From Escherichia coli (GTDB taxonomy: Bacteria > Pseudomonadota > Gammaproteobacteria > Enterobacterales > Enterobacteriaceae): DNA of 64,000 nt. Shown one piece after another: positions 10,699-64,000 of the stretch; positions within the stretch are counted from its first letter, which is position 1, and each line of letters begins with the position of its first letter. The notes under the pieces were generated by a model. The model worked only from the letters and a program-made list of their open reading frames with translations, did not search any database and was not told the origin of the DNA. Both the position numbers and the translations under genes were made by a program. The stretch lies in NCBI RefSeq assembly GCF_003334335.1, contig NZ_QOWQ01000022.1. One strand, written 5' to 3'.

Positions 10699-12546
10699 AT
10701 GTTGCTTAATATGATGTGTGGTCGTCGGCTGTCGGCAATCAGTTTGTGCCTGGCCGTAACATTCGCTCCACTGTTCAATGCGCAGGCCGATGAGCCTGAA
10801 GTAATCCCTGGCGACAGCCCGGTGGCTGTCAGTGAACAGGGCGAGGCACTGCCGCAGGCGCAAGCCACGGCAATAATGGCGGGGATCCAGCCATTGCCTG
10901 AAGGTGCGGCAGAAAAAGCCCGCACGCAAATCGAATCTCAATTACCCGCAGGTTACAAGCCGGTTTATCTTAACCAGCTTCAACTGTTGTATGCCGCACG
11001 CGATATGCAACCCATGTGGGAAAACCGTGATGCTGTTAAAGCCTTCCAGCAACAGCTGGCAGAGGTGGCGATTGCCGGTTTCCAGCCGCAGTTTAATAAA
11101 TGGGTAGAGTTACTGACCGATCCTGGTGTTAACGGGATGGCACGCGACGTGGTGCTCTCTGATGCGATGATGGGCTATCTCCATTTCATTGCAAATATTC
11201 CGGTCAAAGGCACTCGCTGGCTATATAGCAGTAAACCTTATGCACTTGCAACGCCGCCGCTCTCGGTGATTAACCAATGGCAGCTGGCGCTGGATAAAGG
11301 TCAATTGCCTACGTTTGTTGCAGGACTGGCACCGCAGCATCCGCAATATGCGGCGATGCATGAATCGTTACTGGCCTTACTCTGTGACACCAAACCGTGG
11401 CCCCAACTGACCGGCAAAGCAACGTTGCGCCCAGGGCAGTGGAGTAACGACGTACCGGCGTTGCGCGAAATATTGCAACGCACAGGCATGTTGGACGGGG
11501 GGCCGAAAATTACTCTACCTGGCGATGACACGCCAACTGACGCGGTAGTCAGCCCATCCGCTGTTACTGTTGAAACAGCAGAAACTAAGCCGATGGATAA
11601 GCAAACGACGTCTCGTAGTAAACCTGCGCCTGCCGTTCGCGCCGCCTACGATAATGAACTGGTGGAAGCCGTTAAACGTTTTCAGGCATGGCAAGGATTG
11701 GGGGCAGATGGTGCTATTGGCCCGGCAACACGTGACTGGTTAAACGTAACGCCCGCCCAGCGTGCTGGCGTGTTGGCTCTCAACATCCAGCGATTGCGCT
11801 TGCTGCCAACAGAGCTTTCTACCGGGATCATGGTTAACATTCCGGCCTATTCGCTGGTCTACTATCAGAACGGCAATCAGGTGCTGGATTCGCGAGTCAT
11901 TGTCGGTCGCCCCGATCGCAAAACGCCGATGATGAGCAGTGCCCTTAACAACGTAGTGGTAAACCCGCCGTGGAACGTACCTCCAACTCTGGCACGCAAA
12001 GATATTCTGCCAAAAGTGCGCAACGATCCGGGATATCTCGAAAGCCATGGCTATACGGTGATGCGCGGCTGGAACAGCAGAGAAGCGATTGACCCATGGC
12101 AGGTTGACTGGTCTACAATCACGGCCTCGAATTTACCGTTCCGCTTCCAGCAGGCTCCAGGCCCACGGAACTCGCTGGGGCGCTATAAATTCAATATGCC
12201 GAGTTCAGAGGCCATTTATTTGCATGACACGCCGAACCACAATCTGTTCAAGCGTGATACACGCGCATTGAGCTCAGGCTGTGTACGAGTGAATAAAGCT
12301 TCCGATCTGGCGAATATGCTGTTGCAGGATGCAGGCTGGAATGACAAACGTATTTCTGATGCGCTGAAGCAGGGTGATACACGTTACGTCAATATTCGGC
12401 AGTCGATTCCGGTGAATCTCTACTACCTGACGGCCTTTGTTGGTGCAGATGGTCGTACCCAGTATCGTACAGATATTTACAATTATGATCTGCCTGCGCG
12501 ATCCAGCTCGCAAATCGTATCGAAAGCGGAACAATTAATCAGGTAA
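10699..12546 (+). CDS. ldtD: L,D-transpeptidase LdtD (YcbB)
   Basis: 615 aa ORF with signal peptide and C-terminal YkuD-like domain (HDTPNHNLF...SSGCVRV). Confidence 0.93.
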
Positions 12547-28866: not shown

Positions 28867-32020
<3,154 letters not shown>

Positions 32021-59913: not shown

Positions 59914-60573
59914 TTAATCGCGGCTAGCGAAGCCCAGAATGCTCAGCAGGCTGACGAAGATGTTGTACAGCGAAACATACAGGCTAACCGTGGCACGAAT
60001 ATAGTTCGTCTCACCGCCATGAATGATGTTGCTGGTTTCAAACAAGATAGCGCCAGAGGAGATCAGAATGAAGACCGCGCTGATCGCCAGATGCAGAGCA
60101 GGCAGCTGCAGGAAGATATTCGCAACCATACCAATCAGCACCACCACAATACCCGCCATCAGCATACCGCCGAGGAACGACATATCTTTGCGGGTGGTCA
60201 GCACATATGAAGAGCAGCAGAAGAACACTAACGCCGTTCCGCCCAGTGCCATAGCGATTACGTCACCCATTCCGGCAGACAGATAGGTGTTCAGAATAGG
60301 TCCGAGGATATAACCCAGAAAACCGGTAAAGGCGAATGCGGAGATAATCCCGGTCGGCTTATTCGCCGTTTTATAGGTCAGGAACATCAAACCATACATA
60401 CCCACCAGCGTCAGAATCAGACCCGGAGATGGCAGCATCAGCACCGTACTGGCAGTTGCGGTAATCGCCGAAAAGGCCAGCGTCAGGCTCAGCAGAAAAT
60501 AGGTATTACGCAGCACCTTATGGGTGCTAAGCAGTGATGTACGGTCATGTGAAGAACTAACAATACGATCCAT
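59914..60573 (-). CDS. yccA: Bax inhibitor-1 family inner membrane protein YccA (FtsH modulator)
   Basis: 219 aa ORF with 7 predicted TM segments. Confidence 0.93.
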
Positions 60574-60741
60574 TGAGTCACTCTCTATGACAGATGTAAT
60601 TAATTAAGCAGCATAATGATAATGCGTAAGGGCACCCAGAAGTTTTACCCATCTTTACGCATTTGATCTGGAACAGGTTTAACAGCGGATTATCAGGTCA
60701 TTAAGCAAATATAACGCCCTGAGAATTTCGACAGGCAAAAG

Positions 60742-60772
60742 AAAAAGGGGTTAGCATTTAGCTAACCCCTTA
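60742..60772 (-). terminator. rho-independent terminator immediately downstream of the serT remnant
   Basis: Minus strand AGGGGTTAGC-TAAAT-GCTAACCCCT followed by TTTTTC. Confidence 0.75.
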
Positions 60773-60779
60773 TCTTATT

Positions 60780-60839
60780 TGGCGGAAGCGCAGAGATTCG
60801 AACTCTGGAACCCTTTCGGGTCGCCGGTTTTCAAGACCG
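60780..60839 (-). tRNA. serT: truncated tRNA-Ser (serT) 3' segment, 60 nt from anticodon loop to CCA end; att core of the adjacent prophage
   Basis: Reverse complement of 60780-60839 matches the 3' 60 nt of the serT sequence as I recall it (...CTTGAAAACCGGCGACCCGAAAGGGTTCCAGAGTTCGAATCTCTGCGCTTCCGCCA); the 5' 28 nt are replaced by AT-rich DNA. Confidence 0.85.
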
Positions 60840-60980
60840 AAGAAAAACAAATGAAAATCAGTGTAATACGTGAATCTGCTGAAAATTTAATTAAATTTAA
60901 CACCAAGAAAAATCAAGGTGTTAGGAAGTTGCTCATAGCTAGTATACCAAGTATTTTTGCCAGAAAATTTTCTGTATTGC

Positions 60981-62000
60981 CTACTTGCTAACCACGAGCG
61001 GCAGATCCAGTGTTGGTGTGATTTTTGTTTTACGATCGTAAATCAACACCTGATTTTCTGTTTTATGCCCGCTGAAAATTTGTTTGTCGCGACTGCTGCC
61101 TTCGTAATCTGAGATCCCCTTGGCTTTTATGTCGTGAAAATTGCACCCGAACGGAACGCCAACTTTTTGCTCGGCTGAGCGTTTAGCCTGATTCCACCAG
61201 TTGTTCAGCGTTTTAGCTATGACTTTCCCGCCTTTGGTTGTATTGATCACATATTCGCATGTACAGGAAGATACATTTCGGGCTAACTGGATCGCTGTAC
61301 GTAATCGCGGTGACCATTCCTTGATTTGTTTGGTGCCGGTTTTGTTTTGCTCAATGTAGATCCCTTTATCCATAATATCCTGCCATTTCAACTCAAGCAC
61401 ATCACCGAGCCTTGCCGCACAGAGATAGGAAATCTCCATTGCAATGCGTAACTGTGGAATTGCTTCCGCATATATCGCTGCATACTGTTCATCGGTGATG
61501 TAAACAGTGCGGGCTTTAAGAGAGAATTTTCTGACTCCTTTACATGGGTTATTCTTCACGTATCCACGCTCATATCCCCACCCGTATACTCGACTCAGGC
61601 TTGCCAGTTCATGATTTGCCTGGGTCTTGCTCTCAAGCCCTCGTTTATCCATGAAAATTCTTACCTGCTCAGTTTTGACATTATCAGCAAGCACTTTTCC
61701 GAATACCATCAGCAACGCCTTCTGATGTTGTCGATAATCTTTTTGGGTTCGGGGGGCCAGTTCTGTAAATGCAGGGGAGTCCATAAACATGTGCCATAAT
61801 TTAGCTACGGTCATTATGTTGTGGAGTTTTGCTTTTTCCAGTTCATAATTTTGCCAGACTTTAGCTACGCTGGTTTTCCGCACTCTTCCTAGCCCTATAG
61901 TTCTTGTACTTCCTTCTGGTTTCCACACGTAACTGTAACCATTCGATCTAACCCGCGGTGGCAGTACATTATCTTTTTTATTTTTTCTTGGTCTTCCCAT
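60981..62000 (-). CDS. int: lambda-family tyrosine integrase
   Basis: 339 aa ORF; N-terminus MGRPRKNKKDNVLPPRVRSNGYSYVWKP resembles lambda Int arm-binding domain; C-terminus has GHKxxxxxxxY-DRK resembling lambda Int LGHKSDTMASQYRDDR. Confidence 0.9.
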   Translation of the reverse strand: MGRPRKNKKDNVLPPRVRSNGYSYVWKPEGSTRTIGLGRVRKTSVAKVWQNYELEKAKLHNIMTVAKLWHMFMDSPAFTELAPRTQKDYRQHQKALLMVFGKVLADNVKTEQVRIFMDKRGLESKTQANHELASLSRVYGWGYERGYVKNNPCKGVRKFSLKARTVYITDEQYAAIYAEAIPQLRIAMEISYLCAARLGDVLELKWQDIMDKGIYIEQNKTGTKQIKEWSPRLRTAIQLARNVSSCTCEYVINTTKGGKVIAKTLNNWWNQAKRSAEQKVGVPFGCNFHDIKAKGISDYEGSSRDKQIFSGHKTENQVLIYDRKTKITPTLDLPLVVSK

Positions 62001-62220
62001 TGTTCAGTGCCTCAAAATCGGGTTCAGCAGAAACCAGTTCAGATGTTTTTGGCATCGTTGTCAGTCCGTGTGGAATATCCCTGCGTAGAACTATTGGTTC
62101 GTTTTTAGGACCGATTACAAATGGGATGCCGTGCAGTCTTAACTGGTGTTGCTGTTTTGTGTATCGCTCGTATTTCGTGATCTCTTTAATCTCTGCTGGA
62201 GATAGAGTTAATTCGTACAT
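61978..62220 (-). CDS. xis: putative excisionase (Xis-like directionality factor)
   Basis: 80 aa ORF whose stop overlaps the int start by 23 nt, as lambda xis does; N-terminus MYELTL and basic C-terminus NGKTKKK resemble lambda Xis (MYLTL...NGKKAKS). Confidence 0.55.
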   Translation of the reverse strand: MYELTLSPAEIKEITKYERYTKQQHQLRLHGIPFVIGPKNEPIVLRRDIPHGLTTMPKTSELVSAEPDFEALNNGKTKKK

Positions 62221-62287
62221 GTGGTCACGTGCCTTTACAGCATGACCGCCGCCACTATAGCTGGTGGGCGGCGATATGGGTTGAACA

Positions 62288-64000
62288 TTAAAAATCAGCC
62301 TGACTCGGGATCAGTTTTTGCCAGATAGCTGAAACGTATTTTGCCTGATAACGGGCGTCATCAAGTGCATTATGGCGCTCACCTTCGAATGGGGTAGCAG
62401 TTCTGGCATCGAAGTCTATGGCTTTCCCCAGCTCAACGATTGTGCGTACATCGCGATCGTTGTAGTAACGCCACGGGCAGGGGATCCCCTGCCGTTCGTA
62501 TGAACGGCGCAAAATCGTGTTGTCGAAGTTGGCTCCATTTCCCCAAACCTGAACAAAAAATTCACCGGAGTTTTCGTCGATAAATTCCCGCAATTGTAAC
62601 AGTGCATCATCTAACGGGATTTCATCGGTCATAATGGCAGATTGCGCTTCGCGTGATTGCTTAAGCCACCATTTAATGGTGTCCCGATCAATGACTCCGC
62701 CAGCAGTTTCCAGATCGATAGTCTTACTAAATTCCGGTCCCATATCTCCGGTTTGCGGATCGAAAAATATTGCACCTATTGAGATGATCGGGGCATCAGG
62801 ATTTTTTCCCATGGTTTCAAGGTCGATCATTAGATGGTCACACGTCCTGCTGGTGGATGTGATTTCGTGATGACCGTTCACCTTAATTGGGTGATCTGCC
62901 GTCTCGCCAGTTTCATTATCGCTATTGTGATGCTGATTGCCGCCAGTGTTCTCCTTGTGTGGATGTTCAGCGCCTTCCATTTCCTCCGGATCATCTTCCT
63001 GAACTTCAGGCTGATACTCTTCATCGAATGTTTCCTGGTATGTTGCGTCGCCCATTACCGCGCCACAATCAGGGCAGTTGCCGCCGGTCTGACCGCAGGC
63101 GGTGCAGACTTTTTCCACTTCCTGTTGCGCCACTGATTCAGGCTGTTTCGTTTCTGGCTCGTTTTGTAACGCATTTGGGCTGTTTTGTTCCGCTTTCTGG
63201 TCGTTCTGTTCCGTTTCTTGCTGGTTCTGGTTCACAGAATCGCGGGTCTGGTTCCCCTTAACCCATTTCGGATCATTCGGGTCGCTAATCCCTTCAACAA
63301 ATTCACCACGTGATACTGCAAGCAGTTCATCGGCGTCAGGCTGGCTGATATTGGCTGCCTGCATAATTTTGTTTACTTCGTCAGCGGTAACTTTTACTGA
63401 CCCTGGTTGTGCGGTCGTGTCAGATGCACCAGTATTTTGTTGTGAACCTGAGTATGTACCGTTTTTGCGGGCGAAATATTCTTCTTTCGTGATTTCAGTA
63501 GCCCCAGCAGACAGCGCCTTATCCAGACCAGAAAGTTTGTTTGCGCGACCGTATTTTTCGCCATCCTTGTCGGTGAAGAGGAAGTAGAACGGCCCCTCAC
63601 GTTCTACAGATGGTTCGACTTCCACTTTGCATTCGGTTTTTTCGTTGTCTGGAATTGCCGTTTCCACTGCATCAGTTTCTGGTACTGGCGACGAGAGAGT
63701 ATCAGTTGCGCTCTGATTTGTTCCTTCATCTTCAAACACGCCCTTTGTAGTCAGGTATTCAGTAATGTATTTGTTCAGTGCCACAGGGTCTTTGTGAATG
63801 TCGATCGGACGTTCACGGACAAGGCCAAAAATAGTCTGGCGGTCGTAGCGAAGGGCATCAGGCTGTTTGCGCATTGATGCCGAGATACGCTTCCAGTCTT
63901 CGCGGTCGTTGTCGATAACTTCTTTTTTTGCCCAGCGATGGATGCTGCCGTCAATGTTTCCGGCATCCACATCACCAGGCCAGAGAGCGTAGGCCAGTTC
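62288..64000 (-). CDS. phage exonuclease, partial (N-terminus beyond window): acidic/Gln-rich linker, CxxC-x7-CxxC zinc-ribbon motif and C-terminal DEDDh-type 3'-5' exonuclease domain
   Basis: Reading frame is open to the window edge; C-terminal motifs MIDLETMG, WGNGANFD and HNALDDARYQ are the DnaQ-like DEDDh triad; Cys cluster CTACGQTGGNCPDC. Confidence 0.75.
   Translation of the reverse strand, partial: ELAYALWPGDVDAGNIDGSIHRWAKKEVIDNDREDWKRISASMRKQPDALRYDRQTIFGLVRERPIDIHKDPVALNKYITEYLTTKGVFEDEGTNQSATDTLSSPVPETDAVETAIPDNEKTECKVEVEPSVEREGPFYFLFTDKDGEKYGRANKLSGLDKALSAGATEITKEEYFARKNGTYSGSQQNTGASDTTAQPGSVKVTADEVNKIMQAANISQPDADELLAVSRGEFVEGISDPNDPKWVKGNQTRDSVNQNQQETEQNDQKAEQNSPNALQNEPETKQPESVAQQEVEKVCTACGQTGGNCPDCGAVMGDATYQETFDEEYQPEVQEDDPEEMEGAEHPHKENTGGNQHHNSDNETGETADHPIKVNGHHEITSTSRTCDHLMIDLETMGKNPDAPIISIGAIFFDPQTGDMGPEFSKTIDLETAGGVIDRDTIKWWLKQSREAQSAIMTDEIPLDDALLQLREFIDENSGEFFVQVWGNGANFDNTILRRSYERQGIPCPWRYYNDRDVRTIVELGKAIDFDARTATPFEGERHNALDDARYQAKYVSAIWQKLIPSQADF

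Follow-up and report, generated by a model that had tools for sequence, protein, structure and literature searches.

The 64,000-nt window, by which we mean the whole stretch of E. coli DNA analyzed here, follows the K-12 core genome up to the tRNA gene serT. Identity with K-12 holds up to ...TTCAAGACCG and breaks inside serT; past position 60839 the window reads AAGAAAAACAAA..., whereas attB reads GTGCCTTCAACC... at the same point. About 3.2 kb of the inserted element, from the junction to 64000, lie in the window, and the following features were assigned at the locus:

59914..60573, minus strand: yccA, the last chromosomal gene ahead of the junction (219-aa ORF; annotated as yccA in K-12, PEC1009, E110019, and others)
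60745..60771, minus strand: native serT intrinsic terminator (terminator scan; 11-bp stem hairpin followed by a T-tract, identical to K-12)
60775..60839, no strand: att core, left copy of the prophage direct repeat (65-bp identity block present at both prophage ends in E110019 and also in the attP of phage Evi)
60780..60839, minus strand: displaced 3' fragment of serT, tRNA-Ser(UGA), nt 29-88 of 88 (exact 60-nt identity)
60840..60980, no strand: P' arm of attL, phage DNA (141 bp, 29% GC)
60911-60923, in the P' arm: predicted IHF site (consensus scan)
60943-60951, in the P' arm: candidate arm-type Int site, TATACCAAG (sequence motif, putative binding)
60981..62000, minus strand: int, lambda-type tyrosine integrase (339 aa; PF00589, PHROG, and lambda Int matches)
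61978..62220, minus strand: xis, putative DUF4224-family excisionase (80 aa; 23-nt overlap with int)
62288..64000, minus strand: 3' part of a prophage exonuclease gene (PHROG exonuclease, profile positions 263-823 of 823)

The block of identity to the serT genes of K-12 and PEC1009 is exactly 60 nt long (60780-60839, minus strand) and extends from base 2 of the anticodon stem through the terminal CCA, in agreement with the first-pass annotation, which had read this segment as the 3' part of serT from the anticodon loop to CCA. The anticodon loop occupies 60829-60835, with the anticodon TCA, as written on the plus strand, at 60831-60833. The native serT terminator (fold energy of -21.6 kcal/mol) now lies 3' of the tRNA fragment and downstream of int on the same strand. 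On the other side of the fragment, the AT-rich phage DNA that had been described from the letters alone is borne out by a GC content of 29.1% over 60840-60980, against 50.4% on the chromosomal side. We also considered whether the junction holds a variant but complete tRNA, a finding that the first-pass annotation had named as fatal to its own reading. This was rejected because ARAGORN called no tRNA anywhere in the window, and an Rfam search of the whole window at E ≤ 1 returned no tRNA, only chance matches far below the gathering scores. No tRNA-Ser is called in the window because serT is split by the prophage junction.

The att core and its phage arms

The identity shared with phage DNA is slightly longer than the tRNA fragment, comprising 65 bp (60775-60839) made up of the 60 nt of tRNA and 5 nt past its CCA end. 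The sequence of this core is TTATTTGGCGGAAGCGCAGAGATTCGAACTCTGGAACCCTTTCGGGTCGCCGGTTTTCAAGACCG, and that of the 5' part of serT is GTGCCTTCAACCGCTCGGCCACACTTCC. The same 65-bp core, with recombinant flanks, is found in all four types of att site: attB in K-12 and PEC1009, attP in Evi (where the core sits between an espV remnant and int), attL in the window, E110019, JB2, and Sakai, and attR in E110019. This upholds the earlier proposal of site-specific integration into a tRNA gene. Polymorphisms between attL and attR cannot be used to map the crossover, since attB, attP, attL, and attR do not differ within the 65 bp.

The candidate arm-type Int site in the P' arm lies at +104 from the core, an offset that is the same in the window, E110019, JB2, Sakai, and Evi, and 60943-60951 is its sole occurrence within the 64 kb. 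The TATACCAA motif, proposed as the arm-type sequence, has four copies in the P arm, of which one is inverted and three are direct, plus a single copy in the P' arm; its offsets are conserved across the five elements. Evidence for the predicted IHF site is weak because IHF-consensus matches numbered six in the window against 2.7 expected; one of the six falls in the P' arm. The phage P arm also has a terminator hairpin of its own, a homolog of the serT terminator with a fold energy of -23 to -25 kcal/mol.

Integrase, excisionase, and exonuclease

The genes that follow the P' arm are those that the first-pass annotation had named: a lambda-family integrase, an overlapping Xis-like gene, and an exonuclease. 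The int gene lies 141 bp from the core, near the element end. Its product matches PF00589 (E = 1.2e-7) as well as PHROG integrase families, and aligns with lambda Int over query residues 1 to ~318 (lambda 1-339, E = 1.4e-19). Because homology to lambda Int starts at residue 1, the protein includes the arm-binding N terminus. It is identical to Sakai ECs_1055 of prophage Sp4 at 337 of 339 residues and to the E110019 integrase at 338 of 339.

The catalytic positions are R197, K220, H289, K292, H312, and Y321. The tyrosine nucleophile and the box I Arg, beta Lys, box II His, and box III His (R197, K220, H289, H312, and Y321) are present and are kept in 116 to 120 of 120 homologs. The second catalytic Arg (HxxR of box II, R311 in lambda) is replaced by Lys at K292, as it is in Evi and in every one of the 120 homologs down to 55% identity, and because of this substitution we treat the protein as a homolog whose active site is variant and not as a canonical RKHRH enzyme. 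The change is conservative and fixed throughout the clade. An integrase with the same Arg-to-Lys change is experimentally active (PMC12884075), and in view of this precedent we rejected the change as a novelty; the clade is evidently active despite the missing second Arg. The notion of an "IntKX" subgroup named for such a change was also wrong, since IntKX comprises simple recombinases from ICEs.

Xis matches the PHROG excisionase family phrog_1266 (E = 1.9e-23), it is annotated in RefSeq as DUF4224 (PF13986 in relatives), and all 80 residues are identical to those of Sakai ECs_1056, which is annotated as a phage excisionase. A small basic protein encoded directly upstream of and overlapping int, it has the features of an excisionase, and its predicted role is that of a recombination directionality factor. 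The exonuclease gene runs beyond the window end, where its start is located; in relatives the full gene is 2,472 nt (823 aa). The C-terminal part visible here contains the Rv2179c-like 3'-5' exonuclease domain PF16473 (E = 2.8e-67). Neither int nor xis is truncated, and the exonuclease reading frame is uninterrupted as far as the window shows it.

Empty sites, far ends, and related elements

The uninterrupted form of the locus is found in PEC1009, which is 99.99% colinear with the window over positions 1-60839 and then continues into an intact tRNA-Ser gene (serT) and hyaA. K-12 has the same empty arrangement of intact serT followed by hyaA. Together with the K-12 alignment, this supports the earlier statement that colinearity with the K-12 core ends inside serT. 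The first-pass annotation also expected an intact serT to be rebuilt at the far end of the element. Although the window stops at 64000, short of the far end of its own copy, such a gene was found in all three relatives that we walked, at a distance of 47.6 kb in E110019, 49.8 kb in Sakai Sp4, and ~51 kb in JB2. At attR in each of these, the tRNA-Ser(tga) gene next to hyaA is intact and has the wild-type serT sequence, and the site is occupied by a single element.

The junction is common among complete E. coli genomes. Defined as a 331-bp sequence (window 60650-60980) matched at a coverage of at least 80%, it is present in 745 of 5,426 genomes, or about one in seven, and several closed genomes carry it at 100% identity. 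The attR-type junction was found in 473 genomes at 80% coverage, compared with the 745 for attL, and in ~765 records in the class of at least 95% identity. Given the ~765 high-identity records, the gap between the two counts is probably a coverage artifact arising from variable DNA beyond the P arm. On the phage side, the best matches among complete genomes reach 98.5-98.7% (JB2 and O55:H7 USDA5905), and none of the complete genomes, including those with the exact Int, is identical over the 3.2 kb. Among the exact-Int matches listed, seven of eight places adjoin yccA. The eighth, in JE86-ST02, borders the tail genes of a different prophage, and its junction consists of the P arm, the 60-nt fragment, and the P' arm; this is an internal, attP-like arrangement.

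Beyond int, xis, and the exonuclease, the relatives continue into dicB, a cI/cro-like immunity region, replication genes, Q, and lysis, head, and tail genes. Their head modules differ, being lambda-like in E110019 and Sakai and HK97-like in JB2, so that the relatives are mosaic. Each of the three has tccP2-like genes as well as remnants of espV. Signs of decay are seen in Sakai Sp4 (IS629 and ISEc8 insertions, tccP2/espV pseudogenes) and JB2 (IS21 and ISEc12 insertions, a frameshifted portal gene), and IS1203 lies inside the exonuclease gene in some O111 genomes.

Among characterized elements, Sakai Sp4 ("prophage Sp4, lambda-like phage," NC_002695.2 1161092-1210882) occupies the same insertion point in serT after yccA. 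It also has the order int (1,020 nt), xis (243 nt), and exonuclease (2,472 nt), with equal core and P' arm motif offsets. It differs in its exonuclease gene, a different allele that lowers the nucleotide identity across the whole 3.2 kb to 90.4-90.7%. By its integrase, excisionase, and integration site, the element in the window would be classed as Sp4/CP-933M-type, CP-933M being the EDL933 counterpart of Sp4. In its chromosomal backbone, the window resembles PEC1009 and other small, prophage-poor strains and not O157.

Evi (LR597642.1), a free lambdoid phage genome, shares the 65-bp core with its 60 nt of serT, the P' arm, int, xis, and the exonuclease, and its P arm has the TATACCAA repeats and the terminator hairpin. 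It differs from the window in being unintegrated, with phage DNA on both sides of the core, and the two sequences agree at 89% of nucleotides across the 3.2 kb. The Evi annotation gives int a length of 888 nt, which is too short; the ORF encodes the full 339 aa. Lambda itself offers a more distant comparison. Like lambda, the element encodes a heterobivalent tyrosine integrase with xis directly upstream of and overlapping int, and attP adjoins int on the side facing the tail/late end of the genome, with candidate arm-type and IHF sites. The lambda target, however, is the gal-bio intergenic attB with a 15-bp core, whereas the target here is a tRNA gene with a core of 65 bp, longer because the core must rebuild the tRNA. 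Unlike their lambda counterparts, the window Xis belongs to the DUF4224 family and the window Int has HxxK in box II instead of HxxR.

The principle of integration into tRNA genes and the anticodon-centered class of att sites have been described (PMC4383910, where the Williams 2002 sublocation scheme is cited). In STEC, serT is listed among the prophage sites (PMC8767318, PMC10132054). In the Islander collection, a 3' tRNA fragment accompanies 3,760 of 3,919 islands, and the 2,083 anticodon-centered ones form the majority class (PMC4383910). As in Islander class "A," the 3' fragment at the window locus would be co-oriented with and downstream of the regenerated tRNA gene, the identity block extends from the anticodon stem to the 3' end, and a tyrosine integrase is encoded at one end; we see no essential difference between this class and the window element. 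Of the features that mark an Islander island, the window has an exact 3' tRNA fragment beside foreign DNA and an integrase near the element end; PEC1009 and K-12 have the empty site, Evi has an attP with the same core, and the intact cognate tRNA gene at the other end is present in E110019, Sakai, and JB2.

Integration at serT and competing explanations

Positions 60775-64000 very probably represent the int-proximal junction (attL) of a lambdoid prophage of the Sp4 type, formed by site-specific recombination between attP and serT. The phage attP carries the last 60 nt of serT and 5 nt more, followed by its own terminator hairpin. The tyrosine integrase, presumably aided by IHF and the arm-type sites, would most likely act on the 7-nt segment of the anticodon loop, exchanging strands between the inverted arms of the anticodon stem. 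Integration splits serT, leaving its promoter and 5' 28 nt on the hyaA side. There, the 5' part would be joined to the phage-borne 3' part and the phage terminator, giving a functional serT at attR, while the chromosomal 3' part becomes a dead fragment between yccA and int, the one present in the window. Excision, the reverse reaction, would be carried out by Int and the DUF4224-family Xis. The window's own copy of the element is presumably complete.

One alternative is that the attL is genuine but the element behind it is decayed or rearranged by deletion, IS insertion, or inversion between prophages, leaving no intact serT at a phage-length distance. The window covers only 3.2 kb of the element, and Sakai Sp4, JB2, and some O111 genomes give examples of decay, but we regard this as unlikely given the full-length int and xis, the open exonuclease part, and the attR with intact serT kept in all three walked genomes. 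Furthermore, loss of serT would be selected against because it is the tRNA-Ser(UGA) isoacceptor gene and, to our knowledge, the only one in K-12. We likewise give little credence to the window containing the first of two or three tandem prophages, in which case the next core would be internal and attP-like, with the intact serT over 60 kb from the junction. Single occupancy in E110019, Sakai, and JB2 speaks against it, as does the one-in-eight share of exact-Int places of this kind among those listed, the other seven adjoining yccA. Nevertheless, tandem prophages at serT_1-3 have been described in STEC CC119 (PMC10132054), and in JE86-ST02 an identical Int sits beside the tail genes of another prophage. 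Because such tandem prophages occur at serT (PMC10132054; JE86-ST02), the first-pass annotation was too strict in treating the absence of an intact serT within about 60 kb as refutation.

It is very improbable that the same int-att module belongs here to a smaller, non-phage element such as an integrative island or satellite: every relative examined runs on into lambdoid phage genes, and the module is also found in the packaged phage genome of Evi, even though integration modules are exchanged between elements and the visible part consists of the int-xis-exonuclease module only. The chance that the junction is a chimera, with chromosomal and prophage contigs wrongly fused across a repeat during assembly, is close to negligible. 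Nothing specific points to it, and while short-read assemblers can in principle be misled by a repeat of 65 bp, the 331-bp junction occurs at 100% in several closed genomes and with at least 80% coverage in 745. A more far-reaching proposal is that the phage is recently acquired and still active, its remaining 40-50 kb bearing cargo unlike that of the sampled relatives (e.g., a toxin gene, as in E. albertii), and that the invariant Lys in place of the second catalytic Arg marks a mechanistically distinct active site in a large enterobacterial integrase clade. Recent acquisition is conceivable because the backbone is small, prophage-poor, and commensal-type, and matches 4.7-Mb genomes whose serT is unoccupied at 100% identity, but we consider the proposal as a whole quite improbable.

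The attL of an Sp4-type prophage is a real but ordinary feature whose integration site, mechanism, and phage family are already described. It is the point where core-genome colinearity ends and a mobile element of roughly 50 kb begins, which matters mainly for annotation. Prophages at serT in related strains carry the type III effector genes tccP2 and espV as well as sodC, lom, and extra tRNA genes, and an Stx2f prophage is found at serT in E. albertii. Because prophages at this site carry effector and toxin genes in related strains, an occupied serT is, once the downstream part of the contig is at hand, useful when judging virulence potential.

The serT junction and its attachment sites

The plus strand of positions 60780 to 60839 reads TGGCGGAAGCGCAGAGATTCGAACTCTGGAACCCTTTCGGGTCGCCGGTTTTCAAGACCG, the reverse complement of the final 60 of the 88 nt of serT, the gene for tRNA-Ser(UGA). 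The match is exact over these 60 nt against both K-12 and PEC1009, two strains with an empty serT site, and stops there; past it the window reads AAGAAAAACAAA... where intact serT reads GTGCCTTCAACC.... What is kept of the tRNA begins at the second base of the anticodon stem's 5' strand and extends to the CCA end, and an exact match that stops precisely at the 3' end of the gene is not a product of chance. The first-pass annotation had named a variant but complete tRNA as the alternative; this is excluded, because ARAGORN calls no tRNA in the whole 64-kb window and no credible Rfam match lies within 60600 to 61000.

Features of the window at the junction and in elfC
28867-30234 and 30273-30959, plus strand: two ORFs of elfC, broken at about 30188
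59914-60573: yccA, in the left flank beyond the serT terminator
60745-60771: serT terminator hairpin, left of the core
60829-60835: anticodon loop of the serT fragment (fragment on the minus strand)
60981-62000, minus strand: int, 339 aa
61978-62220, minus strand: xis-like gene, 80 aa
62288 to window end, minus strand: exonuclease gene, 3' two-thirds (full-length product 823 aa in relatives)

The layout of the left flank, with yccA and the serT terminator, matches K-12, and several small genomes match the chromosomal part of the window over 20.8 kb at 100.0% identity. PEC1009 is the isogenic empty site. It is colinear with bases 1 to 60839 at 99.99% identity, and its locus reads yccA, intact tRNA-Ser and hyaA, with the match to the window stopping exactly 60 nt into the tRNA, just as the claim that core colinearity ends inside serT had it. 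The one departure is in elfC, a fimbrial usher gene, where the window lacks 508 bp from gene offset about 1322 of 2601. This loss leaves two ORFs, of 455 and 228 aa, and elfC of the window is therefore probably a pseudogene.

We aligned six attachment sequences: attB of K-12, attP of the free lambdoid phage Evi (LR597642.1), attL of the window, E110019 and JB2, and attR of E110019. All six share one 65-bp block (the core), consisting of TTATT plus the 60 nt of the tRNA. In attP the core lies between the left and right phage arms, in attL between the chromosomal left flank and the phage right arm, and in attR between the phage left arm and the chromosomal right flank, which holds the 5' 28 nt of serT and leads to hyaA. 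The flanks are recombinant as predicted for site-specific integration, which is what had been proposed for this tRNA gene. In E110019 the core occurs twice as a perfect direct repeat of 65 bp, over a span of 47,583 bp, and the tRNA at its attR is identical to wild-type serT (ARAGORN call, tRNA-Ser(tga)). The junction is the attL of an Sp4-type lambdoid prophage in serT.

The integrase module and its relatives

To the right of the core lies a stretch of 141 bp with a GC content of 29%, versus 50% on the chromosomal side. It is followed by an integrase, an overlapping Xis-like gene and an exonuclease, all found where the first-pass annotation had placed them. Int matches PF00589 and the PHROG integrase families, and its residues 1 to about 318 align with lambda Int (E 1.4e-19). 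The xis-like gene, annotated as DUF4224 in relatives, shares 23 nt with int and has a hit to the PHROG excisionase family phrog_1266 (E 1.9e-23), and the C-terminal domain of the exonuclease is PF16473, a Rv2179c-like (DnaQ-type) 3'-5' exonuclease (E 2.8e-67). Exonucleases of relatives (e.g., E110019, locus L001 2353-4824) carry YdfE_N and YdfE_C domains besides the DnaQ-type PF16473, and several phage records label the gene exodeoxyribonuclease VIII despite this domain. The exonuclease also varies more than the rest of the visible module. The deposited record of phage Evi gives int as a "mobile element protein" of 888 nt (L003 3142-4029); the actual ORF encodes 339 aa starting MGRPRKNKKDN, and the annotated start codon is placed too far downstream.

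Alignment with lambda Int places the catalytic positions at R197, K220, H289, K292, H312 and Y321. Five of these are canonical, whereas K292 stands where lambda Int has R311 of box II (HxxR), so that box II of the window Int reads H-D-I-K. All 120 homologs compared, from many Enterobacterales and with identities down to 55%, have lysine at this position, as does the Int of phage Evi. This clade is evidently active, since it accounts for precise insertions in hundreds of genomes and is present in a free phage. Given this, and given that a 2026 study reports an integrase with the same Arg-to-Lys change to work in vivo (PMC12884075), we regard K292 as marking a variant of the active site rather than a discovery.

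The window ends after 3.2 kb of the element. We followed the far end in three complete genomes with the same junction, E110019, O157:H7 Sakai and JB2. The rebuilt, intact serT expected there was present in all three. The E110019 element is a 47.6-kb lambdoid prophage with, in order, int, xis, exonuclease, dicB, cI/cro-like and replication genes, rusA, Q, tRNA genes, lysis genes, lambda-like head and tail genes, sodC, J, lom, tail fibres, tccP2 and an espV remnant, and it ends at tRNA-Ser and hyaA. The Sakai element, annotated by its depositors as "prophage Sp4, lambda-like phage" (1161092-1210882), opens next to yccA with the genes for Int (ECs_1055), excisionase (ECs_1056) and exonuclease (ECs_1057), and at its other end lie tccP2 and espV pseudogenes, then serT (ECs_R0048, anticodon tga) and hyaA. 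In JB2, the nearest match to the phage side of the window, the element measures about 51 kb; it combines an HK97-like head module with several IS elements, an EspF-repeat protein and an espV remnant, and intact tRNA-Ser and hyaA follow.

Int of the window is identical to that of E110019 at 338 of 339 residues and to that of Sakai at 337 of 339, and Xis is identical to both (80/80). Sakai Int is thus 99% identical, but the whole 3.2-kb stretch is only about 90% identical in DNA, and no phage-side match among complete genomes exceeds 98.7%. The serT prophages are strongly mosaic. Alongside one and the same int-xis-exo-att module, E110019 and Sakai have a lambda-like head module and JB2 an HK97-like one, and immunity and replication regions differ among eight loci with the identical Int protein (L010-L017). 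Because relatives are mosaic behind the same module, the cargo of the window's element is not safely extrapolated from them.

Proposed integration mechanism

In the phage attP, the core made of the 3' 60 nt of serT and 5 nt more is followed by a T-tract hairpin of -23 to -25 kcal/mol, a diverged copy of the terminator that serT has in the chromosome (-21.6 kcal/mol).

Terminator hairpins beside the core
L001 48300-48361 (E110019 attR) and L003 2885-2940 (Evi attP): phage P-arm terminator hairpin
Window 60735-60779: chromosomal counterpart of the phage hairpin

The two terminator regions are about 90% identical over 107 nt, core included; the 3' part of the tRNA and the terminator thus both come from the phage. 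Integration places this phage-supplied 3' sequence and terminator behind the serT promoter and 5' 28 nt, which restores the sequence of the tRNA gene, and the original 3' part is left beside yccA without its 5' half.

By family precedent, Int would bind core-type sites in the inverted arms of the anticodon stem, and strand exchange would take place in the 7-nt segment of the anticodon loop. The identity block, whose start falls within the anticodon stem (5' strand), fits such an exchange. In the P arm the motif TATACCAA is found four times at -78 to -55, three times in direct and once in inverted orientation (Evi attP, E110019 attR); the P' arm has one copy, at +104, and this offset is shared by the window, E110019, JB2, Sakai and Evi. 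The 9-mer form of the motif occurs once in the whole window. Judged by sequence, these copies are good candidate arm-type sites for the lambda-like N-terminal domain of Int, and a consensus match at 60911-60923 is a weak candidate for an IHF site. Excision would be the work of Xis together with Int. int and the serT fragment share a strand, so that transcription out of int would cross the fragment and reach the serT terminator in the prophage, and in the free phage would reach the phage's copy of that terminator. We speculate that the hairpin may serve int as well as the rebuilt serT.

Frequency of the junction and precedents at serT

The 331-bp junction (window 60650-60980) was found in 745 of 5,426 complete E. 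coli genomes at a coverage of 80% or more, with 100% identity in several of them, and a 3.5-kb junction in 727. A 265-bp attR-type query matched 473 genomes (coverage of at least 80%), with 765 records in the class of at least 95% identity; empty sites match this query at 90 to 95% only, through the terminator look-alike. These summary counts suggest that attL and attR junctions are roughly equal in number. The exact Int protein occurs in 2,530 blocks of the assembly index.

Prophages can also share the site. In JE86-ST02 (AP022811.1, L015 about 11100-11830) the identical Int adjoins the tail-fibre genes of a second prophage, in the order Int, P' arm, 60-nt serT fragment, P-arm-type flank and tail-fibre genes. 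This is an internal junction of a tandem prophage array, and up to three prophages in tandem (serT_1-3) are described for STEC clonal complex 119 (PMC10132054). Because such arrays exist, the earlier proposal that integration would be refuted by finding no intact serT within about 60 kb is too strict, as it would wrongly count against integration in a strain of this kind. The overall interpretation was correct and the finding is real.

Both this kind of feature and the site itself are already known. serT is among the prophage integration sites of STEC O121:H19 (PMC8767318) and holds an Stx2f prophage in E. albertii (PMC10673567). The Islander paper describes tDNAs that are split by integration and restored by the element, whose ends are the regenerated gene and the displaced fragment; 3,760 of 3,919 islands had a 3' fragment, and 2,083 an att site centred on the anticodon (PMC4383910). 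The junction in the window belongs to this majority class.
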